Notes under the pieces: model-generated
What the model was told of the DNA's origin: nothing
Database searches by the model: none
Seen by the model: only the letters and a program-made list of their open reading frames with translations
Shown here: positions 43,102 through 48,845 of the stretch, in pieces
Position numbering within the stretch: the stretch's first letter is position 1
Layout: the number at the start of each line of letters is the position of its first letter
Assembly: GCF_030013595.1 (NCBI RefSeq)
Contig: NZ_CP122768.1
Reading direction: 5' to 3' (one strand)
Length of the DNA: 64,000 nt
Source of the DNA: Escherichia coli
Lineage (GTDB): Bacteria; Pseudomonadota; Gammaproteobacteria; Enterobacterales; Enterobacteriaceae
Position numbers and translations under genes: made by a program

Positions 43102-43839
43102 ATGAGTTTTCAATTTTGCAGGCGGAAGTTTTATTTCCTCCTGGCGCTGACCTTACCGGGCTACGCCGCCGTCCACCCCGTGCAACACAGCGCGCGGGAA
43201 CAAGTCAACGCCCAGGTACTGAATGCCGCGAGCCAGGAAATTGAATCGCTGGCGCAACAGCGGCGCTGGCATGACTATCGCTACACCTTTAAGGTCTATA
43301 TTCCCTCGCAGATTGCGACCGCCGCCCCCTGTGCGACTACACCCGGCGTCACGCTCACTTCGCCTGCGGAAATCACCCTCAACCGGATGAACTTCACCGT
43401 CAGTTGCCCGCAAAGCTGGCAGATGAACGTGGCGGTGCGCCCGGATGTTCTGGTGCCGGTGGTAATGGCGAAGTCACTGGTTGCCCGCGACACGCCGCTC
43501 ACGGCAAATGATGTGGAGTTGAAGCCCTACAACGTCAGCGCCCAGCGCCGCAATGTGTTGATGGATCCCGATGACGCGATTGGTTTCAGCAGTAAACACG
43601 CGCTGCAACCGGGCAGGCCCATCACCAAAGAAGAGCTGGTTTCGCCAGTGCTGGTCGAACGCGATCAGCCGGTGATGATTGTTTACCAGAGCGCGGGGAT
43701 CACCGCCTCGATGCCCGGCGTGGCGCTGAAAAATGGTCGCAAAGGCGAGATGGTGAAAGTGCGTAACGCCAGCAGCCAGCGGGTCATCAGCGCGATGGTG
43801 GCGGAAAGCGGCGTGGTAACAACGGTAAGCGCGGAGTAA
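43102..43839 (+). CDS. lfgA: FlgA-like P-ring assembly chaperone
   Basis: ORF trimmed to MSFQFCRRKFYFLLALTLPGYAAV signal peptide; divergent from lfgB. Confidence 0.75.
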   Translation: MSFQFCRRKFYFLLALTLPGYAAVHPVQHSAREQVNAQVLNAASQEIESLAQQRRWHDYRYTFKVYIPSQIATAAPCATTPGVTLTSPAEITLNRMNFTVSCPQSWQMNVAVRPDVLVPVVMAKSLVARDTPLTANDVELKPYNVSAQRRNVLMDPDDAIGFSSKHALQPGRPITKEELVSPVLVERDQPVMIVYQSAGITASMPGVALKNGRKGEMVKVRNASSQRVISAMVAESGVVTTVSAE

Positions 43840-44026
43840 TTTGCTGTAATACCGCGTAGCATATGTATGACTAGCTCCCAATATTCTGACTTTCTGACAA
43901 ATTTCATTGTGTATTTTGGATAATTATTGAGCACTCAATCACTACTGTTTAAATATCCAGATGATAACTATTTCATCTGGGTCAAATGAGTGATATTGTA
44001 TCACCAATAAGACCTACGGGGGTGCT

Positions 44027-45451
44027 ATGTCTGAATTTGAATTGCTCGTGAAAGATCTTCTTTTAAAATCAGAAGAAGACGAGAAAAAGCGACAAGAAAA
44101 AGATCGAGAATTAATTTCAAAGGTTCTTGAAATCTATGATCAAAAATATGTTGCAGAACTCCTACGAAAAGTAGGAAAAAATGAATGGAGCAGAGAAACA
44201 CTTAACCGTTGGATAAATGGTAAGTGTAACCCTAAACAATTAACTTCTGCTGAGGAAACTTTACTTCGAAAGATGCTTCCAGAACCTCCCGAACATCATC
44301 CTAACTATACATTTCGTTTTATTGATTTATTCGCAGGGATTGGTGGTATTCGTAAAGGCTTCGAAAATATTGGTGGGCAGTGTGTTTTTACTAGCGAATG
44401 GAATAAAGAAGCGGTAAGAACCTACAAAGCTAATTGGTTTAATGATGAACTAAATCATAAATTTAATCTTGATATACGAGAAGTCACTTTAAGTGATAGA
44501 GATGATGTTTCCGAAATGGAAGCCTATAATCATATAGACAAAAATATTCCAGATCATGATGTCCTTCTGGCCGGTTTTCCATGTCAGCCCTTTAGTCTGG
44601 CTGGGGTAAGCAAGAAAAATTCTCTGGGGCGTGCACATGGTTTTGAATGTGAGGCACAAGGAACACTATTTTTTGATGTCGCTCGAATTATTAAATCAAA
44701 AAAACCAGCTATTTTTGTGCTTGAGAATGTGAAGAACCTTAAAAGTCATGATAAAGGTAAGACTTTTAAAGTCATCATGGAAACACTCAATGAATTAGGG
44801 TATGAAGTCGCCGATGCTGGTGTGACTGGCTCAGATGATCCTAAAATTATAGATGGAAAACATTTTTTACCCCAACATCGTGAGCGTATAGTGTTGGTAG
44901 GATTTCGTAGGGATCTAAATATTCACAAGGATTTCACGTTACGAAATATTAACCGCTTTTACCCTCAAAACAGGCCAACATTTGGTGAATTATTAGATCA
45001 TGATGTTGACGACAAATATATTTTGACTCCAAGGTTATGGGAATATCTTTACAATTATGCAAAAAAACATGCAGCAAAAGGAAATGGATTTGGTTTTGGT
45101 TTAGTGGATCCTAAAAATCCAGATAGTATCGCACGAACGCTGTCTGCTCGTTACCATAAAGATGGCTCTGAAATACTGATCGATCGTGGCTGGGATAAGG
45201 CTGTCGGTGAAATCGATTTTAGTAATCCAGCGAATCAAGAGAATCGACCAAGAAGACTGACACCTCATGAATGTGCCAGGTTAATGGGTTTTGAAAAACC
45301 AGGGGGAAGACCTTTTAGAATACCTGTATCAGATACTCAAGCTTATAGACAATTTGGGAACTCAGTTGTTGTGCCAGTATTTGAAGCTGTAGCAAGATTA
45401 CTAGAACCGTACATACAAAAGGCTGTCAGCATGCAAGTTATTAACGATTAA
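44027..45451 (+). CDS. DNA (cytosine-5)-methyltransferase, Dcm/M.EcoRII-like (predicted CCWGG specificity)
   Basis: 474 aa with motifs [15 protein letters not shown] (I), [10 protein letters not shown] (IV), ENVKNL (VI), [10 protein letters not shown] (X); collinear with E. coli Dcm as recalled; ACGGGGG RBS; AT-rich compared with flanking flagellar genes. Confidence 0.85.
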
Positions 45452-45474
45452 TAATAATTAACTTTCACTATTGT

Positions 45475-45498
45475 GAGGCCTTTTTTATTAAAGGCCTC
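45475..45498. terminator. bidirectional hairpin between the convergent methyltransferase and endonuclease genes
   Basis: gaggccttttttattaaaggcctc perfect stem-loop in the 87-bp convergent intergenic region. Confidence 0.6.
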
Positions 45499-45538
45499 TA
45501 AATATATAATCATAAGTTATTATAAGTATACTTTTATA

Positions 45539-46744
45539 TTATATAAAATCTTCATACAGCGTTATTAACTGTGTGATAAAACCCTCTAACGTTAATAATC
45601 CATCCCTGATTTCCTCCGGATATTTTTTATGAAGAGGGGAAGGTACAACCAAGGTGACACCTTCAGCTCTCATTTCGTTAAATTGAGCAACTGAGACACC
45701 CTCTTGTAAGGTAAACAAATATATTTTGTTGATTTTATTTGCTTCATTGAGTGCCTGACGCCACCGATCCTTACATGTTGTTTTTACAGCAAGCATACGG
45801 AGTTTTTCTCTTGGAAAGTGATCATCATGGTAAGCTGCCGCTGATGGAAAAAGAAAATCGGGTTTCTTTTTTCCTTCAGTAATACATTGAGTAGCAAAAT
45901 GATGCAGTCCATGCTCAATAAAAATTTGCTCAAGATGTAGCTCCAGTGATTTCCCGGCTCGAGATTTTCTTCGATTACTAACAGAGTTAGCCATAGCTAT
46001 AAAATCATCTACAGAACCAAACCCTTGACGGATGATGTCCAGTACGTGAATTTCTTCAACCATTAGAAAGAGATCATATTCAATACGGCGGCGTTCTAAA
46101 AGTTGGTCATCTGGACTGGTTACGCCTGTTGGGTAATAACCCGCAGCATATTGAATAATCTCTAAGCCAGAAGGAAAGCTATGTTTCCAGCTTTCCGGAA
46201 TAACATATTCCTTTTGAGAGATTTTTGGCCTTGATGCGAGTACACCAAGTATTTCACTGGCAGGCCCAAACATTAAAGTTCCAGGAATGATCTCCCCAAT
46301 AGCTGATTCCAGTACATCCTCTTCTTCTGGGCTAACACAAACCCATACATCAACACTTTTGCTGTCTCTCCCTGGCTCATGTTCAAACGCAAGCACAGAC
46401 AAAGCACCTGTATTTTCCGGATCCTGTAGGGGACTGCCAGCCCCCCACCGAGTGATGCGTTTTTCATTTCTTGTTTGCCCGAAATACTTATTATTGTAGT
46501 AAATAGCGCGAACCTCACTGTCTACACATTCATGAGAGGAATAAGTTGCGCGCAATAAAACCGAAGGATTTTTTTCTGACGTATGATCTATAGATGGGAA
46601 AAGTTCAGCGACGATACCAGAAGGGATATATACCCCCACTTGATGCCCTCCTGTTGCACCAGTGTCGTTTGCTGAAAGACGTTTAATATAGAGATAGTTG
46701 TTACCACCGACCTTATCAAGCAGCCAATCTTGTAATCCTGACAT
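45539..46744 (-). CDS. type II restriction endonuclease, EcoRII-like
   Basis: 401 aa; N-terminal ...YIKRLSANDTGATGGHQVGVYIPSGIV... and overall collinearity with R.EcoRII as recalled; convergent partner of a Dcm-like methylase. Confidence 0.65.
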   Translation of the reverse strand: MSGLQDWLLDKVGGNNYLYIKRLSANDTGATGGHQVGVYIPSGIVAELFPSIDHTSEKNPSVLLRATYSSHECVDSEVRAIYYNNKYFGQTRNEKRITRWGAGSPLQDPENTGALSVLAFEHEPGRDSKSVDVWVCVSPEEEDVLESAIGEIIPGTLMFGPASEILGVLASRPKISQKEYVIPESWKHSFPSGLEIIQYAAGYYPTGVTSPDDQLLERRRIEYDLFLMVEEIHVLDIIRQGFGSVDDFIAMANSVSNRRKSRAGKSLELHLEQIFIEHGLHHFATQCITEGKKKPDFLFPSAAAYHDDHFPREKLRMLAVKTTCKDRWRQALNEANKINKIYLFTLQEGVSVAQFNEMRAEGVTLVVPSPLHKKYPEEIRDGLLTLEGFITQLITLYEDFI

Positions 46745-46797
46745 AAGACATCCTTATTTTTGCATAGTATCCGATTCAGATTTTTCCACATATCCAT

Positions 46798-46831
46798 CAG
46801 AACGACCAGAACGACCAGAACGACCAGAACC
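46798..46831. repeat. tandem 9-bp repeat (CAGAACGAC, three full copies plus one partial) in the endonuclease/lfgM divergent region
   Basis: cag-aacgaccag-aacgaccag-aacgaccag-aacc read directly, 54-87 bp upstream of the endonuclease ATG. Confidence 0.9.
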
Positions 46832-46934
46832 AACATATCTGAACAAAAAGTAAATATGCGATAACGATTAAAGTTTTGCCGCCTGTTAACCGCTTTACCG
46901 GAGTAACCCACCTAAATACCGAGACGAGGTTGCG

Positions 46935-47210
46935 ATGAAAATCACCCCGACTATGCCAGGCAATCGCCCGACAGTCACAACGGCAGGCTCCAGCCAGCCG
47001 CGCAAAGGCACGGCGACCACCACGACGCTAAGCGCCGACGACATTACCCAGGCGGGATTGCAGTCTGCCCAGCAAACACTGAACGACCAGCAAGAGAGCG
47101 ATATCGACAGCGATAAAGTGGCGCAAATGCAGGCGATGCTGGCCTCCGGCAGCCTGCAAGTGGACACCGAACAGTTAGCCAGCGACATGCTGAGTTTTTT
47201 CCAGAACTAA
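46935..47210 (+). CDS. lfgM: FlgM-like anti-sigma-28 factor
   Basis: 91 aa; C-terminal ...VAQMQAMLASGSLQVDTEQLASDMLSFFQN matches the FlgM sigma-28-binding region; GAGG RBS. Confidence 0.8.
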   Translation: MKITPTMPGNRPTVTTAGSSQPRKGTATTTTLSADDITQAGLQSAQQTLNDQQESDIDSDKVAQMQAMLASGSLQVDTEQLASDMLSFFQN

Positions 47211-47222
47211 GAGGCCGATGAA

Positions 47223-47651
47223 GTGAGTATCAGGTTACAACAGGTGAAGGCGTTGTTGCAGGGAATTCGTGACGATGACGCGCTGTATGATTCCCTGCGC
47301 GAACTTCTCCAGCGCCAGCGGATCTGCATGATTCGCCGCGCCAGCGAAGAGCTGCTGGCGGTAAACGAGGAGATAACCCATCACTATGAGCAGTTGCATG
47401 GGCATAGCCATCAGCGACACAGCCTGCTGAAAATGCTCGGTGTTAGCGTAAATCGTGACGGTCTGGCGCAGGTATTTGCCTGGCTTCCGGCGGTACAAAA
47501 AGCGGCAGCACAACAGTTGTGGCAACGCCTTGAGCAAAAAGCGGAACGCTGCAAAGCCTACAACGACAAAAACGGCGAGCAGTTGATTCGCCAGTATGAA
47601 TTTATTCAGTCTTTTTTAGGCAGCGAAGCGGATTTTCTGTACCAGGAATAA
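47223..47651 (+). CDS. lfgN: FlgN-like chaperone
   Basis: 142-aa helical protein starting at GTG 47223 with AGAGG upstream; follows lfgM as in flgM-flgN pairs. Confidence 0.7.
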   Translation: MSIRLQQVKALLQGIRDDDALYDSLRELLQRQRICMIRRASEELLAVNEEITHHYEQLHGHSHQRHSLLKMLGVSVNRDGLAQVFAWLPAVQKAAAQQLWQRLEQKAERCKAYNDKNGEQLIRQYEFIQSFLGSEADFLYQE

Positions 47652-47778
47652 CGACCATTCCTTCCCCCATCGCGGAAACGGATTTTCCGCCTGATTCACA
47701 ATCCTTTGTTTTTGATTATAAAAAATCACGGCACGCTTATTGCACATTCCGCAAAGTAATAAAGACTGGAAGCCACCT

Positions 47779-48609
47779 ATGAGTTTTATTGAATGTTACG
47801 AACCGGAATACGTGCGCAATTTTATGACGCAATATCCCGATTCGCCTTTGTACATCCGCAAGGTGTGGAAAAACGAGATTCGCCTGAGCCTGATGCTGAC
47901 AGAGCCAGAAAGTTGCGAAGCGGTGCTCAACGATGCCAGGGCCTTTGATTTACAGCTCACCTACCGCCCGGCGGAAGAAAATGCCGCAGAGCTTTCCGCG
48001 CGCGATGCGATAGTAAACCAGGTCATTTTGAGTACCCTCACGCTCCCCGATTTAACCCCAGAGCTTTCACTATATGCCATCGGGATTTTACTCTCCCGCG
48101 CCAGCAAAATGCCGGGCAGAGACGGAGATATTCTTGCCCGTTTGACGACGCTGCCGCAGGCGCTGGCCGATCATGCGAAAAAAGGCACGCTACAGGCACA
48201 GTTCGCCCAACTTCCGCCCGTGCCACAGCTGGCGCGTCACCTGGCCACGCTACTCGGGAGTTTTACGTTTGACTGGTCGATTTTGCCGGAAAGCCCGCGC
48301 AAAACTTCGCTGCCGTTGCAGATGCCTTTGCTGGCGCTACATGACGCCAACAGCGAAGCCCTGGTGCAACAGCAGCTTCAGGCTCAGTGGCAAACCACCT
48401 GGCAACAGCATTTTGCCACCGCGCCCTGGATGATGCGTAACTGGCTGATTTACCGCGTTTACCATGAGGTGATTGGACAGGCAGACGGAGCAGATTATTG
48501 CCCGCTGGTGTGCGATTTTTATCTTATCCGCACGTTAATCAGTTTTATGGACGCTGGATGGTTCTCCGCTGCGACAGGAGGATATTTTCGCCCTTTTTGC
48601 GGTGTTTGA
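47779..48609 (+). CDS. hypothetical protein in the Flag-2 variable region
   Basis: ORF 47740..48609 begins at a TTG; first ATG with GGAAG RBS is 47779 (MSFIECYEPEYVRNF...); no recognisable domain. Confidence 0.55.
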   Translation: MSFIECYEPEYVRNFMTQYPDSPLYIRKVWKNEIRLSLMLTEPESCEAVLNDARAFDLQLTYRPAEENAAELSARDAIVNQVILSTLTLPDLTPELSLYAIGILLSRASKMPGRDGDILARLTTLPQALADHAKKGTLQAQFAQLPPVPQLARHLATLLGSFTFDWSILPESPRKTSLPLQMPLLALHDANSEALVQQQLQAQWQTTWQQHFATAPWMMRNWLIYRVYHEVIGQADGADYCPLVCDFYLIRTLISFMDAGWFSAATGGYFRPFCGV

Positions 48610-48729
48610 ACGCTGGCGAGAGAGTGAAAATGCGCTGTTTATTCGCCAGCAAATTCAGTCGTTATGTGCGGCAGAGCCGCTGCTTTCAGCATTTTCGCTG
48701 CTGACGTGAGTCGCTCTGTGCGCGCTTTT

Positions 48730-48845
48730 CCCCTCACCCTAACCCTCTCCCCAAAGGGGCGAGGGAACCGATCGAGCACGGTGTTAAAATCGGCGCTGGT
48801 TTTCTCCCCTCTCCCTGTGGGAGAGGGTCGGGGTGAGGGCATCAG
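48730..48845. repeat. GC-rich composite palindromic intergenic repeat, copy C
   Basis: ccctcaccctaaccctctccccaaaggggcgagggaacc ... cccctctccctgtgggagagggtcggggtgaggg, same orientation as copy B. Confidence 0.7.

Follow-up and report, generated by a model that had tools for sequence, protein, structure and literature searches.

The window, as we call the whole 64,000-nucleotide stretch of Escherichia coli DNA analysed here (contig NZ_CP122768.1), carries a restriction-modification cassette in its Flag-2 region, and a short tandem array lies close to the right end of that cassette, between two divergent genes. The features that frame the array are as follows.

~43845 to 46848, no strand: 3.0-kb restriction-modification cassette, inserted between lfgA and lfgM
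44027 to 45451, plus strand: gene for a cytosine-5 DNA methyltransferase of the M.EcoRII/Dcm type (Pfam), convergent with the endonuclease gene
45469 to 45504, no strand: inverted repeat between the convergent stop codons, with 15-nt arms, 87% complementary, and a 6-nt loop
45539 to 46744, minus strand: intact gene for an EcoRII-family type IIE restriction endonuclease of 401 aa (Pfam, PDB 1NA6)
46798 to 46830, no strand: tandem array (Tandem Repeats Finder and allele census), present at 1.67 copies in other E. coli
46831 to 46858, no strand: AT-rich tract at the right end of the cassette, shifted 18 bp from the predicted promoter core by two extra repeat units
46935 to 47210, plus strand: lfgM, the Flag-2 anti-sigma-28 factor, 91 aa (Pfam FlgM)

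An EcoRII-family cassette in the Flag-2 locus

The endonuclease contains the Pfam domains EcoRII-N (2.8e-60) and EcoRII-C (3.5e-70) and aligns along its whole length with the EcoRII crystal structure 1NA6 (E=3.8e-188), and the methyltransferase contains DNA_methylase (4.9e-79) and an N-terminal DNA_meth_N domain (3.9e-27). An endonuclease with both EcoRII domains and a convergent C5-cytosine methyltransferase partner together define an EcoRII-family Type IIE cassette. The two genes lie on opposite strands with their stop codons 87 bp apart, and the inverted repeat between them is probably a bidirectional terminator, to judge from its arms and loop. EcoRII and Dcm cargo has already been published for the flag-2 loci of 21 Escherichia strains (De Maayer et al. 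2020, PMC6993521), and the cassette in the window resembles that cargo in domain architecture, gene order and size (401 aa, 474 aa); the repeat that we describe here is absent from the text of that paper.

The cassette has a GC content of 38%, against 54-57% in its flanks. Comparison of empty with occupied sites places its left junction at AGTAATTTGC and its right junction at AGTAAATATGC, and these two sequences form an imperfect direct repeat. In the empty site of genome L003, lfgM directly follows lfgA and homology with the window starts at 46849. The array is therefore cassette DNA, lying about 20 bp inside the right end. The Flag-2 segment is present in 1278 of 5426 RefSeq complete E. coli genomes and the cassette in 28 of those 1278; E. 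marmotae carries it too, at the corresponding position.

Two copies of TTCTGAC with a period of 8 bp stand upstream of the methyltransferase gene, at 43884-43898. A -35-like CTGACA, 19 bp from GATAAT, overlaps the second of them, and the two copies might be an autoregulatory operator for the M.EcoRII-type N-terminal domain. Beyond the other end of the cassette, a 3-bp indel leaves lfgM with 91 aa in the window's lineage, compared with the 92 aa of most other E. coli and E. marmotae.

A perfect 9-bp tandem array

The array is a perfect head-to-tail repeat of the unit CAGAACGAC (GTCGTTCTG on the sense strand of the endonuclease gene), comprising 3.67 copies in 33 bp. Tandem Repeats Finder reports it at 46798-46830 with period 9, 3.7 copies, 100% matches, 0% indels and a score of 66, the highest of 22 rows for the 64-kb window. 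Read along the window, the sequence is CAT, then three copies of CAGAACGAC, then CAGAAC and CAACAT. Base 46831 is C where the unit would have G, so the array ends at 46830; the first-pass annotation, which had described 3.7 head-to-tail copies at 46798-46831, was right about the repeat and its copy number and one base long at the end. Its placement of the array upstream of the endonuclease ATG (46744, minus strand) likewise holds, with the range corrected from 54-87 to 54-86 bp, and the gene coordinates (45539-46744 on the minus strand, 46935-47210 on the plus strand) bear out a position between the divergent endonuclease and lfgM starts, 105 bp upstream of lfgM. Four exact copies of the 9-mer are present in the window, where 0.43 would be expected; three of these belong to the array, and a perfect 33-bp array is far beyond chance. 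The 3.7-copy allele is also found in the assembly GCA_053634795.1, separated from the window by 1 SNP and 1 indel across 21 kb; as this second assembly is independent, the allele is not the artefact of a single assembly.

Other kinds of element were sought at the same position. A search of 46600-47000 against Rfam at E<=1 returned just a chance tmRNA fragment of 10.5 bits and left the array without a match, so an RNA element was rejected. Folded as single-stranded DNA, the array reaches -1.2 kcal/mol (z = -0.11) and forms no hairpin or cruciform. Two small ORFs run over it, one of 51 aa on the plus strand (containing ERPERPERP) and one of 107 aa on the minus strand (containing LVVLVVLVV). We regard both as by-products of the repeat; each runs across the endonuclease start in another frame, and every annotated genome examined shows this region as non-coding. 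The exact string CAGAACGACCAGAAC had no match in the literature searched.

Copy number among isolates

The array is longer in the window than in almost every other cassette. In all 28 cassette-bearing RefSeq complete E. coli genomes, the matching segment is 73 bp long against a 91-bp query, that is, two units fewer or 1.7 copies, and in the 13 of these that were read directly the sequence is CAGAACGAC-CAGAAC. The same 1.7 copies are found in four of four metagenome contigs, scanned with a variable-gap pattern that detects 1.7 to about 7.7 copies, in nine places with endonuclease variant P0003, and in many draft genomes. Contigs encoding the window's exact endonuclease protein are more varied: among the matches listed, GCA_053634795.1 has 3.7 copies, GCA_026547985.1 and GCA_030347985.1 have 2.7, and three others have 1.7. 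The 3.7 allele is thus known from the window and one other assembly and the 2.7 allele from two assemblies; copy number in the 3.7 clone was read in two assemblies, and 13-14 further similar contigs were grouped with it and are not among the matches listed. Outside E. coli, the array position in E. marmotae (ten places) is occupied by the non-repetitive sequence GTTCTGGTTGTCCTT, read along the sense strand of the endonuclease gene. A search of genome contigs with the endonuclease protein, at one genome per species, added only two further Enterobacterales relatives.

Delimited by fixed anchors, the array segment measures 18, 27 or 36 nt and its flanks are identical, so the alleles differ by whole units, as they do at variable-number tandem-repeat (VNTR) loci. 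Comparison among isolates, the check that the first-pass annotation had proposed, therefore finds a copy number that varies (1.7, 2.7 or 3.7) rather than an invariant one. Whole-unit steps of 9 bp are also what its suggested mechanism, slipped-strand mispairing, predicts.

Descent of the longer alleles

A 21-kb alignment around the cassette comprised the window, L044 (3.7 copies), L046 (2.7 copies) and three 1.7-copy strains, L045, L047 and the pig strain HCP5S3_I2 (L048). The window, L044 and L046 have 8 SNPs and a 2-bp indel in common against the three 1.7-copy strains, the window and L044 have one further SNP and a 3-bp deletion in common, and L046 carries five private SNPs. The two longer alleles (2.7 and 3.7) sit nested inside a single clade. 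The simplest history is a change from 1.7 to 2.7 copies at the base of this clade and from 2.7 to 3.7 on the window's branch. Because a 1.7-copy tract can misalign by one unit only, two steps are required, and the intermediate allele exists. Neither the 21-kb comparison nor the allele census revealed any homoplasy, recurrence or reversal of copy number. Two repeat events, set beside some 25 substitutions in 21 kb, give a rate of ~1e-6 per generation, a crude and uncertain figure that depends on assumptions about recombination and the clock. At that rate the array would change orders of magnitude more slowly than classical contingency loci, and more slowly too than the promoter tandem repeats of M. 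tuberculosis considered below.

This pattern bears on the proposal that changes in copy number could switch expression of the endonuclease (or lfgM). Taken in full, the proposal makes the array a contingency locus, at which frequent and reversible 9-bp slippage switches one or other gene within a population. A perfect tandem array in a predicted promoter region is a suitable substrate, and its unit number does vary among isolates with an identical endonuclease protein. Nevertheless, the array has only 3.7 copies of a 9-bp unit, every one of the 28 complete genomes and many drafts stand at 1.7, and the variant alleles are monophyletic and nested, the 3.7 allele being common to two assemblies. 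The variation sampled, which includes few members of the expanded clade, shows neither high frequency nor reversal, and we consider a switch of this kind quite improbable.

Small indels occur elsewhere in the same neighbourhood. Between flgF and flgG and between flgD and flgE, REP elements (GCCGGATGCGGCG...CCGGCCTAC) at ~39433 and ~41454 contain indels of 3 bp and 2 bp, which separate the same close relatives as the 9-bp array does. Since close relatives differ by indels in these nearby REP-type elements as well, small indels appear to be part of ordinary divergence here. 

Several other differences distinguish the lineages. At methyltransferase codon 349 (position 45071), the expanded-array clade reads GCA (Ala) and its 1.7-copy relatives read ACA (Thr). 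The intergenic region that separates the FliB-like gene from a glycosyltransferase gene holds a GC-rich, imperfectly palindromic repeat, CCCCTCACCC...GGGAGAGGGTCGGGGTGAGGGC (48728-48842), whose C-run near 48806 is one C longer in the window than in any of the four closest relatives; with this extra C the mechanically called glycosyltransferase ORF is 898 aa long, against 823 aa called elsewhere. Downstream of lfgN, at 47740-48609, the FliB-like lysine-N-methylase ORF has a TTG start and 289 aa, against 309-310 aa in most strains, and the gene is annotated as frameshifted in HCP5S3_I2. It is probably a pseudogene in the window's lineage.

A conserved promoter-like layout and the position of the array

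A sigma-70 consensus scan of 43700-47300 gave no match in the endonuclease-lfgM intergenic region, with an overall count below the shuffle expectation, and the promoter was therefore sought by comparative alignment. We compared the upstream regions of seven EcoRII-family cassettes, from E. coli, E. marmotae, Klebsiella spallanzanii (whose endonuclease is 78% identical in amino acid sequence), a Pantoea plasmid, an E. coli plasmid, an EcoRII-type plasmid and a Phytobacter plasmid. Two elements stand out from upstream DNA that is otherwise largely unalignable. The motif TG[GA]AAAAAT ends 34-42 nt before the ATG in all seven cassettes, and in all seven (the window, L026, L040-L043 and L051) exactly 17 bp separate T[GA]G[CT][CT]G from the AAAAAT hexamer downstream of it. 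This conservation suggests that EcoRII-family endonuclease genes have an extended -10 promoter with a weak -35, laid out as T[GA]G[CT][CT]G, 17 bp, TGnAAAAAT. Other -10 candidates (TACTAT, and a GGATAT/TATAAT-aligned hexamer) were set aside; their sequence and position are less consistently conserved than those of TGnAAAAAT. A mapped endonuclease promoter for the EcoRII family was not found in the literature accessible to our search. Binding at the EcoRII promoter was reportedly the subject of work by Som and Friedman in 1994.

In the window, the predicted elements, together with a candidate promoter for lfgM, fall as follows.

46780 to 46788, minus strand: putative extended -10 element TGGAAAAAT, with the hexamer at 46780-46785 and TG at 46787-46788
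46803 to 46808, minus strand: putative -35 hexamer TGGTCG, assigned by conservation and spanning a unit junction (CTG on one side, GTCG on the other)
46869 to 46897, plus strand: sigma-28-like candidate promoter of lfgM, read from the sequence as TAAAGTTT, 12 nt, ACCGCTTT

Transcription of the endonuclease gene is predicted to start near 46773, which would put the array at about -25 to -57 and the added units at about -40 to -57. On this promoter model the tract lies in or beside the promoter, as the tracts of simple-sequence contingency loci do; unit number, though, would alter neither the -35/-10 spacing nor a defined site. Since the -35 hexamer is made up where two units meet, and neither the 17-bp spacer nor the -10 element falls within the added units, all alleles would retain the same core promoter. 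The first-pass annotation had argued from a change in promoter spacing of about one helical turn per copy. On the predicted promoter, the -35/-10 spacing is the same in all alleles, and a 9-bp unit is 0.86 of a turn, so that phasing of upstream DNA would not be preserved. Both points count further against switching by copy number. The plasmid EcoRII system (L042 type) has the conserved -35 and extended -10 in common with the window but lacks the repeat.

What the two extra units would alter is the DNA upstream of the core. They displace an AT-rich tract (ATATTTACTTTTTGTTCAGATATGTTG; displaced tract also given as ATATTTACTTTTTGTTCAGATATG) from -40 to -57, 18 bp away, and widen the gap between the putative endonuclease and lfgM -35 elements from 42 to 60 bp. 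It is possible that selection favored the expansion because it shifts promoter strength quantitatively or alters the coupling of the two promoters. The 18 bp of GC-richer DNA at -40 to -57 would remove an UP-element-like tract from the contact zone of alpha-CTD, and the gap between the divergent promoters would be wider; either change could leave endonuclease expression in this clone lower or higher, or uncouple the two promoters. The span of the array (-25 to -57), the AT-richness of the displaced tract ATATTTACTTTTTGTTCAGATATG, the two successive expansions in one lineage, and the intactness of both the endonuclease and methyltransferase genes, which makes regulation more plausible than loss, are all consistent with this reading. 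Against it, the DNA upstream of about -45 is unconserved among EcoRII-family cassettes, and plasmid L041 has a terminator hairpin directly next to its -35 element, which argues that no upstream element is needed.

On the lfgM side, the sigma-28 consensus is TAAAGTTT-N11-GCCGATAA, and promoters of this class generally need no upstream activator, a second point against a selected effect. The sigma-28-like lfgM promoter itself lies outside the cassette and is common to cassette-free strains. On balance we judge selection for an altered promoter to be a less likely but reasonable reading, and it is the alternative to which we give most weight.

The comparison also bears on the suggestion that the array is an iterated operator, a series of regulator-binding sites. 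TTCTG-containing direct repeats do occur upstream of the methyltransferase gene as well (TTCTGAC twice, as described above). Known direct-repeat operators follow a helical phasing of 10-11 bp, and the 9-bp period is off that phasing. Moreover, E. marmotae has only a degenerate second copy (GTTCTGGTTGTCCTT), and no such motif stands in the promoters of K. spallanzanii, Pantoea, Phytobacter or the EcoRII-type plasmid. That the extra copies match one another at 100% and occur in a single lineage marks them as recent duplications rather than conserved operators. Inspection by eye turned up no convincing LexA, OmpR/PhoB-type or TorR-type box, and a period of 9 bp would not suit any of these. M.EcoRII is reported to repress its own gene with no effect on the endonuclease gene (review, PMC12707154). 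The array thus lacks both the conservation in orthologous promoters and the 10-11 bp spacing of iterons, and we think it very improbable indeed that it serves as a set of binding sites.

Comparison with known repeat loci

The closest counterparts of the array are the VNTR loci used for MLVA typing in E. coli and other bacteria, which vary by slipped-strand mispairing. The array resembles them in its perfect short head-to-tail units, in whole-unit differences between identical flanks, and in having long alleles derived from a shorter proto-repeat. It differs in its very low copy number (1.7-3.7), in having expanded in one lineage, and in its location: it is not an existing typing locus and lies in the putative promoter of a horizontally acquired restriction-modification cassette.

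Repeats in promoters that act as contingency loci are well established in other bacteria. Phase-variable TA repeats lie between the -35 and -10 elements of hif in H. influenzae, phase-variable 7-bp repeats occupy the promoters of hmw1A and hmw2A in the same species, and TAAA repeats lie upstream of the -35 element of nadA in N. meningitidis. In M. tuberculosis, promoter tandem repeats are described (PMC12817950) as polyphyletic and as varying in isogenic cultures at 1e-2 to 1e-3 per chromosome, a contrast that weighs further against frequent switching at the array. Like all of these, the array is a tandem tract in or just upstream of a (predicted) promoter, with a strain-dependent number of units. 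The other tracts, however, are longer or demonstrably hypervariable, and they change spacing, a regulator site or promoter dosage, whereas variation in the array is nested in one clade and would leave the core promoter unaffected.

The association of a repeat tract with a restriction-modification gene recalls the Type III mod and Type I hsd phasevarions (PMC12707154). Known phase-variable restriction-modification systems are of Type I or III, mostly from Haemophilus, Neisseria and Helicobacter, and vary through frame-shifting repeats in coding sequence. The array differs in all these respects, being non-coding, with a unit that is a multiple of 3, in the putative promoter of a Type IIE endonuclease in E. 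coli.

Origin and significance of the array

Taken together, these observations lead us to favor the view that the array is probably a young, VNTR-like length polymorphism, neutral or nearly so, that marks one sublineage of E. coli. The starting point would be a 15-bp proto-repeat, CAGAACGAC-CAGAAC, in which a 6-bp direct repeat recurs 9 bp on, as it does in almost all cassette-bearing E. coli. Replication slippage in one sublineage may then have added one unit to give 2.7 copies, and a later, second slippage one more to give the 3.7 copies of the window. The added units would leave the -35 element, the 17-bp spacer and the extended -10 element untouched, and would only shift non-conserved AT-rich DNA and the divergent sigma-28-type promoter of lfgM 18 bp further off. 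The effect of the expansion on expression of the endonuclease or lfgM is expected to be nil to modest. On this account the alleles are likely to be stably inherited lineage markers and not a reversible switch.

Two considerations temper this view. The array has expanded twice in succession within a short branch but not once in about 27 other E. coli assemblies, a contrast that selection for longer arrays in that clone could also explain. In addition, the gene whose putative promoter the array overlaps is potentially toxic, and even a modest shift in its expression could matter. It is tempting to speculate that the array is an incipient contingency locus, a microsatellite arising from a 6-bp direct repeat that slips often once it has reached 3-4 units and so produces subpopulations differing in endonuclease expression or in coupling with the lfgM promoter. 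We hold this to be a long shot. If it were true, the array would be the first repeat-controlled promoter of a Type II restriction enzyme described in E. coli, caught at its origin. More generally, an array that modulated restriction would offer E. coli an unusual route to heterogeneity in phage defence; the present evidence points elsewhere, to the neutral or nearly neutral polymorphism that we favor.

In summary, the array is a short tandem-repeat polymorphism in a promoter region, of an already familiar kind. If our VNTR reading is right, it will be useful mainly as a lineage marker for one E. coli clone carrying the Flag-2 EcoRII cassette. It also offers a natural example of the birth of a tandem repeat from a short direct repeat, with the 1.7, 2.7 and 3.7 alleles all still present in the databases. 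The more reusable by-product of the comparison may be the promoter architecture itself, which appears to be conserved among EcoRII-family endonuclease genes.
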